From a virus (lineage: Duplodnaviria > Heunggongvirae > Uroviricota > Caudoviricetes), in the IMG/VR virus record IMGVR_UViG_2582580934_000004, positions 1 through 7,222 of that record: a DNA stretch of 7,222 bases, one strand, 5' to 3'. The notes under the pieces are model-generated. The model saw only the letters and a list, made by a program, of their open reading frames with translations, was not told where the DNA came from and ran no database searches. The stretch's first letter is position 1. Each line of letters starts with the position of its first letter. Shown here piece by piece: positions 256 to 7,222 of the stretch. Made by a program: the position numbers and the translations under genes.

Positions 256-290
256 GGCCGACTTCGGTCGGGCCGGATTCTTTGCTCTCC
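256..290 (+). terminator. Hairpin with a UUCG-type tetraloop followed by a U-rich tract; possible second terminator or structured leader
   Basis: ccgac (258-262) / gtcgg (267-271) around loop ttcg (263-266), extendable with one bulge; followed by ggattctttgctct. Confidence 0.3.
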
Positions 291-396
291 GGTGTTCTTG
301 TGTAGCCGGTACTGCGAACCTCGTACGTCTCGCCACCCACAGTTTCGCAGCTCTGGATGGTGAGTTTTCACAACTTACTACACAAGGGGCCACACC

Positions 397-699: not shown

Positions 700-1089
700 A
701 TGATTGACGCTCATGACTTCACAAGATGGGTGCGCACACAGGACACCCGTCTGGCTCCCGTTCTTCAGGGATTATTTGATCTCTACATCCGTGGTCGTGA
801 CAACAGAGCACGCACCACAAAACCGGAGAATGCAGACACCCTTTATTTCACAGTAGACGACTGCTACCGCGTGGACTTCACACCACACGGGCTGGCGTTG
901 CACTGCCTGACACCACACGGCGAATCACTACTGGCGTATTACGACTCCCCGGCCTCCGTATTTGCGGCAATGCTGGCGCATCGCACTGCTGGCGGGTGTG
1001 CCTCGCTGAGTGAATACACCGCTGAATTTGACCGCCTTTCCGCCATAACCGCCTTTCCGCCCTCTTCTCGCAGGAGTGGCAGCGCGTGA
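700..1089 (+). CDS. Hypothetical protein (129 aa) immediately upstream of the replication gene
   Basis: ATG at 700 with aagag 8 nt upstream; stop at 1087-1089, 14 nt before the gpA ATG at 1103. The 3' end contains a 14-bp direct repeat (see 1031-1064). Confidence 0.45.
   Translation: MIDAHDFTRWVRTQDTRLAPVLQGLFDLYIRGRDNRARTTKPENADTLYFTVDDCYRVDFTPHGLALHCLTPHGESLLAYYDSPASVFAAMLAHRTAGGCASLSEYTAEFDRLSAITAFPPSSRRSGSA
1031..1064 (+). repeat. Direct repeat accgcctttccgcc x2 with a 17-bp period (14/17 identity between the two 17-bp units)
   Basis: Exact 14-mer at 1031-1044 and 1048-1061, separated by ata. Lies in the last codons of ORF 700-1089. Confidence 0.85.
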
Positions 1090-1471
1090 CGGGATACCAG
1101 CCATGAGTGCGTTTGCATGGAGCTGGAATGAACCACGACCAGCTATTGATCCGGCCAGATTTACGGAGCGCAGGCAGGAAACTGAAACCGACCTGCAACG
1201 CGCCATCCGTTACTACCTTGAGGCGGACAAAAGGGCACAGGAAGAACAGGAAGCGAAGGAAGAAGCCTTTTTCGCACAATCCGCCATGGGTAAAAAACTC
1301 ATGGCATCCCTTGAGGAAGCCGGACAGCGTGAAAAGCTGGCTCAGAGCATCATCAGTAAGCGCCGGGCAACAGAACAAGACCCGGTAGCCCGTGCCTTTG
1401 CCACACTGAAGGCGCTTCCCGTTTATCTGCGAGAACCTCTGAGCCGCCACCTCTCTTTCCTGCGCAAAAAA

Positions 1472-1523
1472 CAGGAAGCCGATCGCCGGAAAGGAAGCAG
1501 GAAGCCGATCGTCAGAAAGGCAA
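1472..1523 (+). repeat. Imperfect tandem duplication, 2 x 26 bp (22/26 identical)
   Basis: caggaagccgatcg is exact at 1472-1485 and 1498-1511. Deleting one 26-bp unit joins gpA frame 2 to frame 1, giving ...LRKKQEADRQKGKKSWQAERY... Confidence 0.85.
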
Positions 1524-2895
1524 AAAGAGCTGGCAGGCGGAACGCTATGCACGCGGAACCCTGCGCAAAATATTCGAACGTCTGGACCGCACCGACAGCC
1601 GCTGGCTGACACCGGGTTATCGCTCCCTTGCCGGACGCGAACGCCTGGATGATTTGCTTTACCTGCCGCAGCTCAACAAGCACCAGATACAGACGCTGGC
1701 CACCATGACGGCGGCGATGTTCAGCAGCACCTTCGAAAAACTCTGCGATGGCTTTGGCGCGACCGATGGTGAGCTGACCATGGAGGTGGCACTGAAGGCG
1801 TATCAGATGCTGGCCCGCATGGCGTTACACCTGCACGCCATGCCTCCACATTATGACGCACTGACAACAGACAAAGACCGCAAGAACGAACCGGACACGG
1901 AACTGCTGCCGGGCGCAATCCTCCGCCTGACCTGTGCGGAATGGTGGAAACGCAAACTGTGGCTGTTACGTTGCGAGTGGCGGGAAGAACAACTCCGCGC
2001 CGCCTGTCTGGTTTCCAGAAAAACATCGCCCTATCTGAGCCAGGACGCGTTAAGCGAGTTTCGCGCACAGCGCGAGAAAACACGCGATTTCCTGAAAAGT
2101 TTCATGCTGGAAAACGAAGACGGGTTCACGATTGATCTCGAGACGGTGTATTACGCGGGAGTAAGTAACCCGGTTCACCGTAAGGCAGAAATGATGGCCA
2201 CCATGAAGGGGCTGGAACTTCTGGCCGAAGCCCGTGGCGACAGAGCGGTGTTTCTGACTGTCACCTGCCCGTCAAAATACCACGCAACAACGGAGAACGG
2301 TCATCCGAATCCCAAATGGAACGGGGCCACTATGCGCGACTCCAGCGATTACCTGGTTAACACGTTTTTTGCGGCGGTCCGCAAAAAACTGAACCGCGAC
2401 GGCCTGCGCTGGTATGGCATCCGCACGGTGGAGCCTCACCATGACGGCACCGTGCACTGGCATATGATGGTCTTTGCTCATCCGGAAGAAATCGACAGCA
2501 TCGTGGCCATCACCCGCGATATTGCCATTCAGGAAGACCGCCACGAGCTGGGCAATGATATTACTCCGCGCTTTAAGGTGGAGTATGTCGACGGCTCAAA
2601 AGGCACACCAACCAGCTACATCGCCACCTACATCGGAAAGAACCTGGACAGCCGCGCCGTGGATGGCATCGACCCAAAAACGGGCAAGCCACGCGTTGAC
2701 CACGAAACCGGAAAATCAATGGCCGAGAGCGTGGAACGCGCCATCGGCTGGGCGCGCCTTCACCGGGTCCGCCAGTTCCAGTTCTTTGGCATTCCCTCCC
2801 GTCAGGTGTGGCGTGAACTCCGCCGCCTTGCCAGCCAGATGGCACGCAACCCGGAAGGCCCGCAACGGCTGAAGGATGACGCAATGGATGCGGTA

Positions 2896-2927
2896 CTCGC
2901 TGCCGCTGATTCTTGCTGCCGCTGATG
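2896..2927 (+). repeat. Imperfect tandem duplication, 2 x 16 bp (14/16 identical)
   Basis: gctgccgctgat is exact at 2899-2910 and 2915-2926. Deleting one unit joins frame 1 to frame 2, giving ...DAVLAAADAGCFATYIEKQ... Confidence 0.85.
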
Positions 2928-3239
2928 CCGGGTGTTTTGCCACCTACATTGAAAAACAGGGTGGCGTACTTGTTCCGCGCAAGGACTACCTGATTCGCAC
3001 AGCCTACGACCTCGCAGATGAGCTGAACGATTACGGCGAACAGAGTGTACAGATTTACGGGATCTGGTCGCCACTCATCGGGGAATCCTCCCGTGTGTGC
3101 ACGCACCCGGATAACTGGAAGCTGGTAAGACGTAAACCGGAAGCGGAAGACAGCACCCACGAAAATGGTTTTGACCTTCAGGGCGGCCCTGCCGCCCCTT
3201 GGACTCGTGGCAATAACTGTCCCCGTGTACAGGAAACGG

Positions 3240-3297
3240 ACAACAACGGGACAGAACAGCCGGAAGAAACAACAACGGGACAGAACAGCCGAAAGAA
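3240..3297 (+). repeat. Imperfect tandem duplication, 2 x 29 bp (28/29 identical)
   Basis: acaacaacgggacagaacagccg at 3240-3262 and 3269-3291. Deleting one unit joins gpA frame 2 to frame 1. Confidence 0.85.
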
Positions 3298-3940
3298 CGG
3301 CCAGCACCGTGGCCGCAGCTCCCTGACGGCGTTGAAGTGAACGAATGGATGCGCTCACTGAAACGGCACGAACGCCGGGCGCTGATGCGTTCGCTTCGTG
3401 ACAAACAGGCAAAAAACAGCAGTGATGAAATGCAGAGCTGGACACAGAGCCGCAAACAGCAGCGGCCTTTGCCTGATAACCACGAATTACTCGCTAAAGA
3501 ATGGCGGGAATCTGCCGAATCTCTCGGCCTGCATATCGGTGAACAGCAGATGCAGCACCTGTTACGGGGCGGCAGCCTGTACGTTGACGGCAGCATCATT
3601 GCACCGCAGGGATTTGAAATTGTACGCAAACCGGATACCCGCCCGGACAGCCGGATCACGCAGCTCTGGCAGCGCCTGAGCCGTAACCACGGCGTAAGCA
3701 GCACGGAGATCCGCCATAACCCGGTCGCCAGCTATCTGGAACAGCTGGGGGCATCAGACCCCGAAGCCGCCGCACGCCTGGCATCCACACTTCAGCAGGA
3801 CCAGAACACCATGAAAACACCCGTTACCGTGCTTTCTGACATGCTGCGCGCCATCCGCGACGCAGAGCACGCACAGAGAATCAGTGAAACCACTGAACGC
3901 GCCCGCCGCAAAGCAGACCTGCTGCGGGGTGGCCTGACCA

Positions 3941-4060
3941 GTGGAAACAAAAAACAGACAGAAACGGGATTCACAAATCCCGTAAATGAGCAAAAAACGC
4001 GCCGCGATATATGAAGCGCGCATAAAACAGGCAAAAACGGGATTTCAGAATCCCGTAAAC
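3941..4060 (+). promoter_or_regulatory. parC-like region: two related ~40-bp units, each with a 20-bp hairpin palindrome, directly upstream of the parM-like gene
   Basis: acgggatt-caca-aatcccgt at 3964-3983 and acgggatt-tcag-aatcccgt at 4037-4056 (perfect 8-bp arms, 73 bp apart), each preceded by an aaaacag..aaa motif. The first lies inside the last codons of the gpA frame. AAGGA RBS at 4078-4082. Confidence 0.4.
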
Positions 4061-4090
4061 GATTAATTAATCAACATAAGGAAAAGCGAC

Positions 4091-5073
4091 ATGAAAATTT
4101 GTATCGACGACGGCTCCACCAACATCAAGCTGGCATGGACTGAGAACGGCGAACGCCGCAACGCCATCAGCCCGAACAGCTTCAAGTCGGAATGGTCTGC
4201 GCCGTTCGGTGGTACGCAGCCCGCGAACTACATGCTTGATGGCGTGCGCTATGGTTTTGATCCGGTCAGCGATCGCTTTGTCCAGACGACCGACACGCAA
4301 TACCAGTACAGCGATGTGAATGTCATTGCCATTCATCACGCGCTGGTCAAATCAGGCATCACGCCACAGGAGGTGGATGTGGTTGTCACCCTGCCACTGA
4401 GCGAGTATTTCGACACAAACGCACAGCCGGACATGGCCAACATCAGCCGCAAAAAAGCGAACGTATCAACCGCAAAAAAGCGAACGTTATGCGCCCGGTG
4501 GAGTACCAGAACGGCGAAGCATTCACTATCCGTAACGTACGGGTTATGCCTGAATCCATTCCGGCTGGCTTTAAAGCACTGGCTGACATGAGTCCGTTTG
4601 AATCCCTGCTGATTGTGGATTTGGGCGGAACCACGCTGGATGTGGCAAAGGTTCAGGGGCAACTGGCAGGTATCAGCCAGGTGTTTTGCGATCCACACGT
4701 AGGCGTTTCTCTGATGGCCAATGCCGTACTGTCGGTGATGGCCACTAACGGTATGCGCACCAGTCACCACATCGCCAATACCATTATCGAACATCGCCAT
4801 GATGAAGCCTGGCTGCGCCAGCACATCCACAATGACGCGCATTACGACAGCCTGATGGCGGTTATTCGTGAAAAGGAAGAAACACTGAAACAACGAGTGA
4901 TCCGCGCGCTGGCGGGTTTTTCGGGTTACGGGCGGGTGATGGTTGTCGGTGGCGGGGCGGAGATTGTGGCACCCGCTATCCGCGAAGCCTGCGGAGTTAA
5001 TGCGACTTTCATCGCGGACGGGGTGCCACAGTTTGCTCTGGTTAATGGGCTGTACGCAATGGACAAGGAGTAA
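4091..5073 (+). pseudogene. parM: ParM/StbA-like actin-family segregation ATPase, split by one frameshift
   Basis: Translation matches plasmid R1 ParM at recalled conserved blocks: ICIDDGSTNIKLAW, ISPNSFK, YSDVNVIAIHHAL, RKKANV, VMPESIPAG, LIVDLGGTTLD, VMVVGGGAEI, FALVNGLYAMDKE. Frame 2 (4091 to about 4464) switches to frame 1 (about 4465-5073) at a 23-bp tandem duplication. Without the duplication the product is 319 aa, about the size of R1 ParM. Confidence 0.8.
4442..4487 (+). repeat. Imperfect tandem duplication, 2 x 23 bp (22/23 identical)
   Basis: atcagccgcaaaaaagcgaacgt / atcaaccgcaaaaaagcgaacgt. Deleting one unit gives ...ANISRKKANVMRPVEYQNGEAFTIRNVRVMPESIP..., colinear with ParM. Confidence 0.9.
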
Positions 5074-5077
5074 ACCA

Positions 5078-5389
5078 ATGACGACACCAACCAGACGGAT
5101 AAGTTTCTATCTGAAGCCCGTCGCCGTCAAGAACGAAGGCGAAGCATGCGCCTGGCTGGACAGCCTTACACCAGAAGCCCGCAAAAGCGGCCAACGTGTG
5201 GCTTTTCTGGCCGGGCTGGCACTTCTGAAAATGAATCCGGCAGAGGCTTACCGACTGGCTGCATGGGCTGACGATGAGGCGTTATCAGTGACACAAACCA
5301 GGACAGAACGCCCCGCGTCACAGCCAGTACCAACCACACAGATAACCAGTCGGATGGCCGGAAATATCAGGGCGTTATTTCCCGAATAA
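5078..5389 (+). CDS. parR: ParR-like centromere-binding adaptor (103 aa)
   Basis: ATG at 5078 preceded by AAGGAG at 5065-5070, starting 4 nt after the parM stop (TAA 5071-5073). RRISFYLKP....RVAFLAGLALL resembles the N-terminal DNA-binding region of R1 ParR (recalled). The ORF track extends this frame to ATG 4943 inside parM, which is unlikely to be the real start. Confidence 0.6.
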   Translation: MTTPTRRISFYLKPVAVKNEGEACAWLDSLTPEARKSGQRVAFLAGLALLKMNPAEAYRLAAWADDEALSVTQTRTERPASQPVPTTQITSRMAGNIRALFPE

Positions 5390-5394
5390 CACAA

Positions 5395-5418
5395 CATCAG
5401 GGCGCATCCGCCCTGATG
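5395..5418 (+). promoter_or_regulatory. Inverted repeat with 10-bp arms (catcagggcg / cgccctgatg) between parR and the next gene; operator or weak terminator
   Basis: Perfect 10-bp arms around a 4-nt loop. The core ATCAGGGCG also occurs as a direct copy at 5366-5374. Followed by actttaat, which is only weakly U-rich. Confidence 0.35.
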
Positions 5419-5452
5419 ACTTTAATCCGGGAACATAAACAAGGGGGACACA

Positions 5453-5785
5453 ATGCAACACATTGACAGAGAAAAAGCGCAGCGACTGATTGAGCGGATG
5501 GAAGCGCTGGCGAAAGAAGAAAATGTCAACATCCAAAAAATAGCTGAATGTGGCCAGATAGTTCTTCGTCGTGAAAAAGACCTCAAACAACTGATGTCTG
5601 GCGAAACCAGCAAAACATGGACTTCAGGCGAGGAGACGATTTATTGCAGCTTCTGCAATAAATCTCAGTACGAAGTCACAAAGGTGATTGCCGGACCGTC
5701 TGTTTGCATCTGCAATGAGTGCGTGGATTTGTGCAATGAAATTATCAGGAGAGAAGTGACAGACAAAAAGGGAAAAAACGCATGA
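5453..5785 (+). CDS. Small protein (110 aa) with a C-terminal ClpX-type C4 zinc-finger (ClpX N-domain-like) and an unrelated ~60-aa N-terminal region
   Basis: ATG at 5453 with aaggggga RBS at 5441-5448. Residues [39 protein letters not shown] closely resemble the E. coli ClpX zinc-binding domain (recalled as [40 protein letters not shown]), including all four Cys. No AAA+ domain follows. Confidence 0.75.
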
Positions 5786-6120
5786 ACAGAAAACAAAAAC
5801 AAGAGTTGAAATACTTTTTACGTAAAGAAATTGCCAGGCTTGAAGATGCAGAATCACAATCATCAGAAATTCCGTTCGGAATGGATATCAACGACGCCCG
5901 TATGCTCCAGGCATACCGCATAGCTCAGGCTGCACTACAGGCAAAACCGTCAGATGGACTGGTTAGAGCAGTACGATTCTATGAACTGGTAAAGCGTGAG
6001 AATCCGCCAGCCGAAACCGGAGCATGGAAAGACGCTGTTGACTGGGTACTCAAAGAGGCTTGTCAGGTTGTAAACACTGGCATCAAAGGAGACCTAGCCC
6101 AGCCTGCATCAAAGCTATAG
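5782..6120 (+). CDS. Hypothetical protein (112 aa), translationally coupled to the ClpX-zinc-finger gene
   Basis: ATG at 5782 overlaps the upstream TGA (5783-5785) as ATGA; aaggga about 8 nt upstream; stop TAG at 6118-6120 followed by a strong terminator. No family recognised. Confidence 0.6.
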
Positions 6121-6130
6121 AAATGAGCCA

Positions 6131-6160
6131 AAACGCCCTCTTCCAGGGCGTTTATTTCAA
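6131..6160 (+). terminator. Rho-independent terminator ending the + strand cargo operon
   Basis: Perfect 9-bp stem aaacgccct (6131-6139) / agggcgttt (6145-6153), 5-nt loop, then atttcaa; begins 11 nt after the stop at 6120. Confidence 0.7.
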
Positions 6161-6190
6161 TGCACAATAGTGCACAAATTTGCACAATTT
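6161..6190. repeat. Three helically phased TGCACAA repeats (10-bp period) followed by a T-run
   Basis: TGCACAA at 6161-6167, 6171-6177 and 6181-6187; a fourth copy at 6253-6259. Confidence 0.8.
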
Positions 6191-6230
6191 TTTTGAACGA
6201 CTTTTTGCCCTTCCGGCCCGCGTGGCAGTT

Positions 6231-6249
6231 GGATCCGTCAAGGATCCGT
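6231..6249. repeat. GGATCCGT direct repeat x2 (11-bp period)
   Basis: ggatccgt at 6231-6238 and 6242-6249; the same 8-mer recurs inside the portal gene at 7082-7089. Confidence 0.6.
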
Positions 6250-6310
6250 GCGTGCACAAAAAAACGCGCTTTTTCTGCGCGCAGGTGACGGGGGAACAGC
6301 CCGCGTTTCA

Positions 6311-6318
6311 GGGGGGGG
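6311..6318. repeat. Homopolymeric G8 tract adjacent to a small hairpin (gggaa-tagcg-ttccc)
   Basis: Eight consecutive G at 6311-6318 in non-coding DNA; gggaa (6316-6320) pairs with ttccc (6326-6330). Confidence 0.85.
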
Positions 6319-6362
6319 AATAGCGTTCCCTTAACGATGTCGCAGCGACACGACAGAATGGC

Positions 6363-6393
6363 CGTATTTCTCACGCTGAGCGTGAAAAATACG
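6363..6393. other. 31-bp near-perfect palindrome (14-bp arms, one mismatch, 3-bp centre)
   Basis: cgtatttctcacgc-tga-gcgtgaaaaatacg; the reverse complement of the left arm differs from the right arm at one position. Confidence 0.8.
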
Positions 6394-6561
6394 TGAGGGA
6401 TTCTGGTTTGATGGGGTGAAAGGTAAGGCCGTCAAAATCGCACTGAGGCGGCGAGAACATGCAGTCAGCGCAGTGGGATTGCGTAAGAGTCTGACCGTCG
6501 ATGATGGCAATAAGCAGGAAAGCGTCGTGAAATTATCTGACTGATACAGGAGCTGGAGAGT

Positions 6562-6586
6562 CGGGGCATAAATTTTTTATGCCCCG
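6562..6586. terminator. Inverted repeat cggggcataaa / tttatgccccg downstream of the portal gene; weak candidate terminator
   Basis: Perfect 11-bp arms with a 3-nt loop; GC-rich base and AT-rich top; no clear U-tract after it on either strand. Confidence 0.3.
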
Positions 6587-6636
6587 GCGAAGCAGCAGAC
6601 AAGCGAAGCGCGTCAGGATGTGGGCTGGGTGTCCAG

Positions 6637-6710
6637 CAGTGCATAAGGGTTAAAGCGGATCACCTCTATCTAACAGTGCGTAAGGGTTAAAGCGGATCAC
6701 CTCTTCGCCA
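6637..6710. repeat. Imperfect tandem duplication with a 37-bp period across the 3' end of the portal gene
   Basis: cagtgcataagggttaaagcggatcacctct (6637-6667) against cagtgcgtaagggttaaagcggatcacctct (6674-6704), 30/31 identical. The - strand stop codon (6650-6652) lies inside the first copy. Confidence 0.85.
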
Positions 6711-7222
6711 AGCCAGTCATTGATGTGCTTCATGGCCTCCATGACGGGCATCAGCTCGTTAATTGCGTAAACCCGCGCGGCCTTCTCCACATCACCAAAC
6801 GCACTTTTTTCACCCGGCATCGCCCCCATCAGTTGCGGCGGAACGCGGTGCGCAGCCAGTACATCATCACGGGATGCCGCCTTAACATTCATGAACTCAT
6901 CCTTTGCGGTGATCTGCTGGAACGGCAAAATTTGCACACCTTCTTTGCCCCCGTTGGGCGCATGAATGAGCACGTTTTTAAACGCACCACCACCACGTGC
7001 ACCCTGTAACGTTTCTTTCAGGGAGTCCATGCTTTCGCGGTTTACCTGCGCTGCACCGATGTAGATGATGCACCCGGCGTGGGATCCGTTGTCGTAGTAC
7101 AGTTTTCTGAACATGTCCGCCGAATGAGAAAGGCTGGCTGAGAGTAATGCGCCAAGATATTCCGGCATGCCGTAGATTTCCTGGTTAATATCCGGATTCA
7201 TCAGGTGGCACACTTTGCCAGG
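6650..7222 (-). CDS. Portal protein (P2 gpQ-like), 3' portion; the 5' end lies beyond the window
   Basis: The - strand translation (NPDINQEIYGMPEYL...YYDNGSHAG...SRDDVLAAHRVPPQLMG...FGDVEKAARV...NDWLGEEVIRF) resembles P2-family portal proteins as recalled. It is convergent with gpA, as expected for the A-cos-Q arrangement. The C-terminal codons run through the 37-bp duplication. Confidence 0.7.
   Translation of the reverse strand, partial: PGKVCHLMNPDINQEIYGMPEYLGALLSASLSHSADMFRKLYYDNGSHAGCIIYIGAAQVNRESMDSLKETLQGARGGGAFKNVLIHAPNGGKEGVQILPFQQITAKDEFMNVKAASRDDVLAAHRVPPQLMGAMPGEKSAFGDVEKAARVYAINELMPVMEAMKHINDWLGEEVIRFNPYALLDRGDPL

Follow-up and report, generated by a model that had tools for sequence, protein, structure and literature searches.

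Imperfect tandem duplications in a P2-like prophage contig of Escherichia coli: probable joins of overlapping natural alleles

Short stretches of DNA stand twice in succession at several places of the window, by which we mean the whole stretch of 7,222 bp that was analysed, and most of them shift the reading frame of the gene in which they lie. The two copies of each stretch are similar but not identical. This raises the question whether the repeats record a mutational process in the prophage or were introduced when its sequence was put together.

The window and contig AYJZ01000063.1 (7,222 bp) of the E. coli draft assembly GCA_000511465.1 are identical over their whole length. A synthetic or planted sequence was considered as well and rejected, because the window is exactly this public contig. 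It represents a P2-like prophage region, with a gene order that matches annotated prophages carrying integrase, terminase and capsid scaffold genes. The shared order is an isrK-like RNA, C4 RNA, a derepression gene, a 129-aa gene, gpA, ParM, a ParR-like gene, a ClpX zinc-finger gene, a 112-aa gene and the portal gene.

The repeats and the genes they affect

An initial annotation had described six imperfect tandem duplications in the window, with units of 17, 26, 16, 29, 23 and 37 bp. All six were found again, offset by 0 to 7 bases depending on the register chosen. By direct comparison, the copies are identical at 15 of 17 positions for the repeat at 1031 (17 bp), 14 of 16 for that at 2896 (16 bp), 28 of 29 for that at 3240 (29 bp) and 22 of 23 for that at 4442 (23 bp). 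The 26-bp repeat at 1472 shows 22/26 identical positions, or 23/26 in its best register, which starts at 1469, and the 37-bp repeat at 6637 shows 31/37, or 33/37 when started at 6630. A seventh event of the same kind is located at 279-312; its unit has 17 bp and its copies are only 10-11/17 identical. This event, which is absent from the initial annotation, lies in the non-coding C4 antisense RNA gene.

With its usual scoring, Tandem Repeats Finder gave a clean report of the 29-bp and 23-bp repeats only, since their shortness or divergence puts the others beyond its reach. Therefore direct comparison was used together with a custom scan for units of 15-45 bp with an identity of at least 82%. 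The repeat density in the window is far above chance: the scan returned six matches in the window and three in 951,570 bp of related prophage loci (0.023 per 7.2 kb), all three being a single unrelated 33-bp repeat, and 200 shuffles of the window contained a mean of 0.02 repeats. There are no runs of N at the junctions, which is a point against an origin in assembly.

The seven sites are referred to below as junctions 0 to 6; no strand is assigned to them. At junction 0 (279..312), two divergent alleles overlap by 17 bp within the C4 antisense RNA gene (RF01695; 236..340, plus strand). The junction fuses two different C4 RNA loop alleles into one gene, which is thereby lengthened to 105 nt. 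The C4 RNA in the window scores 73.9 bits (gathering score 45) and covers model positions 1-87, with 21 nt replacing 4 loop positions; intact 88-nt alleles from the relatives L003 and L001 score 83.2 and 78.5 bits, respectively.

The gene placement given for the other six was also correct, namely three repeats in gpA, one in parM and one each at the 3' ends of the 129-aa gene and the portal gene. Junction 1 (1029..1062) is a 17-bp overlap, TGACCGCCTTTCCGCCA followed by TAACCGCCTTTCCGCCC, at the 3' end of the hypothetical 129-aa gene (700..1106, plus strand), and because of it the open reading frame in the window stops early at 1089. The gene for the gpA-type replication endonuclease (1103..4014, plus strand; PF05840), whose relatives are annotated as a 946-aa replication endonuclease, is split into four open reading frames by junction 2 (1469..1520, a 26-bp overlap), junction 3 (2894..2925, 16 bp) and junction 4 (3240..3297, 29 bp). 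Junction 5 (4442..4487, 23 bp) lies in parM and leaves two open reading frames of the ParM-type segregation ATPase (4091..5073, plus strand; PF06406 and PF21523). Junction 6 (6630..6703, 37 bp) is situated at the 3' end of the phage portal gene, of which only the 3' part is contained in the window (6613..7222, minus strand; PF04860), where it runs off the contig end; the C-terminus of the product is altered. It is true, as was claimed, that none of the six units is a multiple of three, but with a chance of (2/3)^6 = 0.09 this has little weight alone.

Collapsing the junctions yields a sequence of 7,057 bp in which every gene is restored. The 129-aa gene regains its native end, gpA becomes a single open reading frame of 946 aa and ParM one of 319 aa, and the portal protein acquires a C-terminus (...ALLDTQPTS) that is identical to that of L001. 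Between the collapsed sequence and L001 there are 86 synonymous and 30 non-synonymous codon differences and no stops, and only 8 of 6,859 bases are private. The genes show the marks of purifying selection that has lasted to the present.

Comparison with related prophages

In comparison with all relatives examined, each repeat is an insertion. The seven changes in length are gains without exception, deletions do not occur, and every one of the seven insertions duplicates the adjoining homologous sequence; junction 0, for instance, is a 17-bp insertion with respect to both L001 and L002. The sole other indel with respect to the relatives is a single G.

None of the 86 relatives fetched, of which 34 to 85 span each site, carries a duplication. 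Among 5,426 complete E. coli genomes, none crosses any junction, and the best alignments end exactly at the boundaries of the pieces; exact junction scans of viral, genome and metagenome collections gave 0 matches. The same was seen for the junctions individually. The sequence of junction 0 was found neither in the viral collection nor in the best E. coli matches, and junction 1 is crossed by no genome examined. E. coli genome alignments end at junction 2, which has no exact matches elsewhere, and the exact scan for junction 3 found no other occurrence. At junctions 4, 5 and 6 the alignments end at the junction and the exact scans were without a match. To the right of junction 3, many E. coli genomes match the piece 2910-3268 with 100% identity, and they do so over exactly positions 16-374 of the query.

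P2-like E. coli prophages with a ParM/ParR module (for example those of O55:H7 CB9615, NCTC9022 and O145 strains) have the same gene order as the window and are 96-100% identical to it piece by piece, but the seven junction duplications are absent from them; only this record has them. Likewise, the frameshifted products are on record from contig AYJZ01000063.1 alone. Repeats native to this phage family, such as binding sites or iterons, are therefore extremely improbable: the mere presence of repeats is all that speaks for them, they are missing from all spanning panel relatives and from the complete genomes, and the homologous genes are intact without them. The independent contigs L005-L007, which share the 225-aa gpA fragment, were considered as possible carriers and rejected, as they are without duplications and owe their split gpA to a separate 1-bp deletion.

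The nearest relative of the window changes from piece to piece. L076 is a perfect match for the interval that opens with copy 2 of junction 3 and closes with copy 1 of junction 4, and it diverges on either side. In a haplotype-switch test that used the flanks only, with the overlaps excluded, the mean T at the junctions was roughly double the value for random positions, but no more than two junctions were individually extreme. This result is suggestive at most, because mosaicism is natural in this family and both flanks of a junction are often matched by a single panel relative. Within the pieces no fine-scale chimerism was apparent, the nearest-neighbour distances being within the range found among natural relatives; this, too, is a point against an origin in assembly. 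As a whole, the comparison with the closest related prophages, a check that the initial annotation had named, points to an assembly error.

Allelic identity of the two copies

At all seven junctions, each copy is identical to a different natural allele from other P2-like prophages. At junction 0, positions 279-295 correspond to the allele of the L001/L074 type and positions 296-312 to that of the L003/L075/L023 type. Copy 1 of junction 1 is the allele of E. coli AVS0756, and copy 2 is an allele present in 12 panel relatives. In gpA, the copies of junction 2 (3 inter-copy differences) are alleles found in 23 and 14 relatives, those of junction 3 (2 differences) in 47 and 16 relatives, and those of junction 4 (1 difference) in 66 relatives and 1 relative, each time for copy 1 and copy 2, respectively. 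The single difference at junction 5 separates an allele of 1 relative (copy 1) from one of 53 relatives (copy 2). At junction 6, copy 1 is the L002-type allele and copy 2 the L001-type allele at all 4 differing positions, with 5 relatives for each type.

Altogether, 19 of 19 inter-copy differences are known natural polymorphisms, and they are in phase. The chance for a random substitution to match a natural variant is 0.09, and with 11 of 11 matching this gives P ~ 4e-12. The initial annotation had presented the repeats as a recurrent mutational signature. A reading as prophage decay through duplication and later substitution is not supported, because the inter-copy differences are pre-existing alleles and not new substitutions, and nothing else in the region is decayed.

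These findings also bear on genuine duplications of the slippage type that arose in a decaying prophage and were followed by point mutation or, in a variant of this explanation, by gene conversion of one copy from a second prophage. Copies made by slippage are identical at birth and later diverge by random mutation. The repeats of the window resemble the products of replication slippage in that a short unit is repeated head to tail and the frame is shifted if the unit is not a multiple of three, as in the six that lie in protein-coding genes. They differ from them in that every difference is a pre-existing allele, even at junction 0 with its poorly matching copies, and in that the divergence between the copies exceeds that of the lineage. 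It amounts to 8.8-11.5%, whereas the window differs by 2.5% from its nearest relative, which is without the duplications; duplications younger than that split could not have diverged so far. Together with the absence of other decay, this makes slippage very unlikely. A high divergence of the copies is, on the other hand, what one would expect if overlaps stay unmerged only where they contain mismatches.

The allele-coincidence test separates mis-joins of allelic overlaps from true duplications when the reads are not at hand. It is a simple and reusable diagnostic, which asks whether the differences between the copies coincide, in phase, with alleles of the population.

The same signature, with natural alleles in both copies, is predicted by a process that generates real DNA, namely recombination out of register, or template switching (copy choice), between two related P2-like prophages that reside in the same genome. 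Re-annealing 16-37 bp upstream on the other template at each switch would leave the allelic overlap duplicated. The occurrence of several P2-like prophages in one genome is common; many E. coli genomes contain more than one related prophage of this kind, in up to 8 places per genome. However, template switching would take seven events in 7.2 kb, all of them gains with 0 losses, in a region that has no other lesions and whose genes have remained under purifying selection. Moreover, the thousands of relatives include no further genome or contig with the junctions, and the sequence is a lone 7.2-kb contig with an end inside a gene, a usual sign of an unresolved repeat. To our knowledge, no such template-switch mechanism has been described for P2-type rolling-circle replication. 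We consider template switching very improbable, and it is likewise very improbable that the junctions are real in the sense that two co-resident heteroimmune P2-like prophages underwent repeated imprecise copy-choice exchange with re-priming 16-37 bp upstream on the other template. If this were true, one burst of copy choice would have put the C4 RNA, gpA, ParM and the portal gene out of action together.

Assembly as the probable origin and similar errors in other genomes

Inferred from the sequence, the repeats are very probably assembly artefacts in which allelic overlaps were joined end to end. The sample would have contained a P2-like prophage in at least two related but non-identical versions, in all likelihood as two co-resident prophages, possibly as a mixed template. 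The occurrence of two allele types within one contig, and of several P2-like prophages in many E. coli genomes, would be in line with this, though only indirectly. In this repeated region the assembler would have produced short pieces, either sub-contigs or reads, with ends that overlapped by 16-37 bp. Where the overlapping ends came from different alleles, the overlaps were presumably too short and too mismatched to be recognised as such. The pieces may then have been joined end to end, so that the overlapped stretch was left in the sequence twice, once in each allelic version. Each join of this kind would mimic an imperfect tandem duplication and shift the frame of the gene that it hits. Such a course of events would also imply that reads did not span the junctions.

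Two more specific models of the assembly process were rejected. A de Bruijn "k-1 overlap" model does not fit, as the overlaps are imperfect and of unequal length. If the arms of bubbles had been placed in tandem, the two junctions with a single SNP, which differ in length (29 versus 23 bp), would probably require different values of k.

The initial annotation had listed an assembly or consensus error, template switching and deliberate or experimental modification as possible explanations. The first of these is supported by the comparison with the relatives, template switching persists only as a rival of low probability, and the third found no support. Joins of overlaps from two alleles do resemble failed products of overlap assembly, as might be expected of a construct made from shuffled or overlap-assembled DNA. 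Yet the record is an ordinary whole-genome shotgun contig of E. coli, it contains no vector or engineered sequence, and a literature search found no paper that names the accession or describes such a construct. A deliberate or experimental construct is thus most unlikely.

The repeats are almost certainly not mutations of the bacterium but, as far as the sequences tell, stitching errors in the assembly. The biological importance is low. Neither prophage decay nor a new mutational process can be read from the apparent burst of frameshifting duplications. In practical terms the importance is modest: seven false insertions would stand in a public GenBank/RefSeq contig, where they give gpA, ParM, the 129-aa gene and the portal gene a broken appearance and corrupt the C4 RNA gene, and protein databases would be seeded with sequences that exist nowhere else.

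Errors of a similar class are known from larger genomes. In vertebrate assemblies, false heterotype duplications (Ko et al. 2022, Genome Biol 23:205, PMC9516828), a class defined by read depth and k-mers, also consist of an allele-specific pair, are tied to incorrect joining or gap filling and lead to false annotation. Here the scale is far smaller and the outcome would be false frameshifts rather than false gene gains. A second counterpart is the error class of "duplicated overlapping contigs", in which haplotype divergence causes a false segmental duplication (Kelley & Salzberg 2010, Genome Biol 11:R28, PMC2864568). Our case differs from it in that the alleles presumably stem from paralogous prophages or a mixed template in a haploid bacterium and not from homologous chromosomes, and in that the overlaps have 16-37 bp instead of kilobases and are joined without a gap. 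As far as the sequences tell, facing ends in both cases carry alternative alleles, remain unmerged through their differences and are both placed adjacent to each other, so that the duplication is illusory, and merging them gives back consistent gene models.

Gene content and repeats

The window is the early, replication and partition region of a P2-like prophage. Its plus strand carries an isrK-like small RNA (126-200; 64 bits), a C4 antisense RNA (236-340), a 76-aa 'derepression' gene of family PF25738 (397-627), a 129-aa gene (from 700), a gpA-type replication endonuclease (from 1103), ParM (from 4091), a ParR-like gene (5078-5389), a ClpX zinc-finger gene (5453-5785) and a 112-aa gene (5782-6120); the 3' part of the portal gene, on the minus strand, runs off the window end. 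The sequence is identical to contig AYJZ01000063.1 (7,222 bases) of the E. coli draft assembly GCA_000511465.1. Thus the window is an entire small stand-alone contig of a draft genome, ending within a gene. In an exact-sequence look-up, each of the frameshifted products was recorded from this one NCBI contig. Among about 15 billion proteins, the exact sequences of the 76-aa derepression protein (WP_025672421.1) and the 103-aa ParR-like protein (WP_025672423.1) are likewise recorded from this contig alone; they differ from common alleles by 1-3 residues, at sites polymorphic in relatives.

The initial annotation had described six short imperfect tandem duplications. Direct comparison of the copies confirmed all of them (junctions 1 to 6: 1029-1062, 1469-1520, 2894-2925, 3240-3297, 4442-4487 and 6630-6703), with identities of 15/17, 22-23/26, 14/16, 28/29, 22/23 and 31-33/37, depending on the register. 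A scan for units of 15-45 bp with at least 82% identity gave six matches in the window. Across 951,570 bp of related loci it gave three, all one unrelated 33-bp repeat (0.023 per 7.2 kb), and in shuffled sequence a mean of 0.02; six repeats are far beyond chance expectation. When the window was aligned to the two complete E. coli genomes closest to it, NCTC9022 (L001) and O55:H7 CB9615 (L002), all six were insertions in the window, and the alignment contained no deletions. The remaining length differences were a 17-bp insertion at 296-312, a seventh site missing from the initial list (junction 0, 279-312), and a single G at 6311. The latter lies in a run of eight G (6304-6320), where bases 6317-6318 of the window are private as well (GGGGGGGGAA vs GGGGGTAAA); this could be sequencing error or a private variant. 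The run is part of a non-coding spacer of 490 bp (6121-6612) that separates the 112-aa gene from the portal gene and in which TGCACAA also recurs, with three copies at a period of 10 bp (6161-6188). In the related locus L003 the same spacer has an additional 525-nt hypothetical ORF. The spacer may be a cargo hotspot or the location of a protein-binding site.

Natural alleles in both copies

After 80 related loci had been fetched from the viral collection, the single-copy allele of each repeat region was tabulated in every relative spanning it. None of these relatives was duplicated at any of the sites. This comparison with the closest related prophages, which the initial annotation had proposed, refutes the idea that the repeats are native to the phage family.

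Both copies of each repeat occur as natural alleles. At junction 1, copy 1 (left; TGACCGCCTTTCCGCCA) matches the E. coli AVS0756 allele exactly, and copy 2 (right) is the allele of 12 relatives. Copies 1 and 2 were matched by 23 and 14 relatives at junction 2 (26 bp), 47 and 16 at junction 3 (16 bp), 66 and 1 at junction 4 (29 bp), 1 and 53 at junction 5 (23 bp), and 5 and 5 at junction 6 (37 bp). At the four differing positions of junction 6, copy 1 has the L002 base and copy 2 the L001 base in every case. At junction 0 the window follows the allele of L001 and L074 to 295 and then that of L003, L075 and L023, restarting 17 homologous bases earlier. These copies are identical at only 10-11 of 17 positions, yet each is a natural allele; the insertion is the same kind of event as the other six, in a more divergent region.

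All 19 differences between copies are natural polymorphisms, in phase. The chance of a random substitution matching a panel variant is 0.09, and for the 11 of 11 natural differences at junctions 2-6 alone P = 4e-12, with phase left out of the calculation. The reading as a recurrent mutational signature is thus not supported, as the differences are pre-existing variants. Moreover, the copies diverge by 8.8-11.5%, compared with 2.5% between the window and relatives without duplications, which rules out duplication followed by mutation. The allele test also contradicts slippage, whether combined with mutation or with gene conversion, and we regard that reading as scarcely credible.

Removal of either copy at each junction yields a sequence of 7,057 bp in which the 129-aa gene, gpA (946 aa, the length annotated in relatives) and ParM (319 aa) are intact, as is the portal C-terminus, which is identical to L001. 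Codon differences from L001 comprise 86 synonymous and 30 non-synonymous changes and no stops, and the window has a private base at only 8 of 6,859 comparable positions. The genes are otherwise sound, with no further decay. The C4 RNA gene has 88 nt in both natural allele types (83.2 and 78.5 bits) and 105 nt in the window (73.9 bits), where 21 nt replace four loop positions of the model; its 5' part is of the L001 type and its 3' part of the L003 type. Together with the isrK-like RNA and the Derepression family gene it forms an immunity-type module (126-627). The loop alleles of relatives fall into two classes, L001-type UUCUUUGCUCU and L003-type UUCUUGUGUAG, which might mark different immunity specificities.

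Junctions and haplotypes

The window was divided at the junctions, so that a piece starts with copy 2 of one junction and ends with copy 1 of the following one. Each piece, extended by 15 bases across the junctions, was searched against all 5,426 complete genomes of E. coli, and the best alignments invariably ended exactly at the piece boundaries. Best identities were 97.0% for 1-1044 (17-bp gap included), 98.9% for 1045-1494, 98.1% for 1495-2909, 100% for 2910-3268, 99.2% for 3269-4464, 98.9% for 4465-6666 and 99.5% for 6667-7222; for 2910-3268, many genomes were identical across exactly query positions 16-374. No exact match was found to any of the seven junction sequences in the viral collection, to junctions 4 and 5 in the species-representative genomes, or to junctions 2 and 4 in the metagenomes.

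The nearest relative changes between pieces. The related locus L076 matches perfectly from exactly where copy 2 of junction 3 begins to exactly where copy 1 of junction 4 ends, and has 47 and 35 mismatches in the adjoining pieces. With the overlaps left out of account, a statistic on whether a single relative can fit both flanks was about twofold higher at junctions than at random positions, with two junctions individually extreme; this is only suggestive of a haplotype switch. Mosaicism within pieces is no greater than among natural relatives. Thus we claim switching at the junctions and not a finer-scale chimera.

Split genes also occur elsewhere. A 225-aa gpA fragment is common to three independent contigs without duplications, in which gpA is split into two ORFs: L005 (604-3425; ORFs of 715 and 225 aa; Logan SRR30896348), L006 (2-1395; ENA metagenome ERZ28579687) and L007 (172-849; Logan SRR12170231). 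The cause of the split differs from that in the window: it is a 1-bp deletion, in L005 at nt 2036 of the L001 gene. It could reflect a frameshifted lineage in natural circulation or else a homopolymer error that recurs. In L005 (3502-4397) and L006 (1472-2123) parM stops after 133 aa at an A-run equivalent to window 4456. The sequence beyond this point is different: in L005 it codes for a protein of the XF1762 family (NF045478, 205 bits), and in L006 another ORF lies downstream. Junction 5 coincides with this natural mosaic breakpoint.

Origin of the repeats

The simplest account of the repeats is an assembly artefact, an alternative already listed in the initial annotation. It is strongly supported by the finding that both copies are natural alleles and by junctions unique to this record. 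The sample would have held two allelic versions of the prophage region. Many E. coli genomes contain several P2-like prophages, at up to 8 places per genome, and the presence of two C4 loop alleles would be consistent with heteroimmune prophages residing together. In such a repeated region an assembler would yield short pieces; facing ends overlapping by only 16-37 bp with allelic mismatches could go unrecognised, and the unmerged pieces would be joined end to end. The retained overlaps are all imperfect, as perfect ones would merge unnoticed. The model also accounts for the findings that every junction is a gain, that overlaps are enriched in allelic differences, that the non-coding RNA and four genes are struck indiscriminately, and that no other decay is present. 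Two variants were rejected: k-1 overlaps, as the overlaps are variable in length and imperfect, and bubble arms placed in tandem, as the two single-SNP junctions are unequal in length.

An identical sequence signature would result if two co-resident prophages had really undergone out-of-register template switching. Yet seven gains would have to arise simultaneously, unaccompanied by any loss or other decay, in a lineage not seen elsewhere and on a contig typical of an unresolved repeat, and we consider this reading very unlikely. A deliberate construct found no support.

The repeats are in all likelihood not a real biological feature, and the only value of the finding is as a data-quality flag on a public entry and in illustrating a simple allele-based test for false duplications. 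As assembly artefacts, they would be a small-scale bacterial counterpart of the 'duplicated overlapping contigs' of Kelley & Salzberg 2010 (PMC2864568), and likewise of the false heterotype duplications that Ko et al. 2022 (PMC9516828) linked to wrong joining or gap filling.
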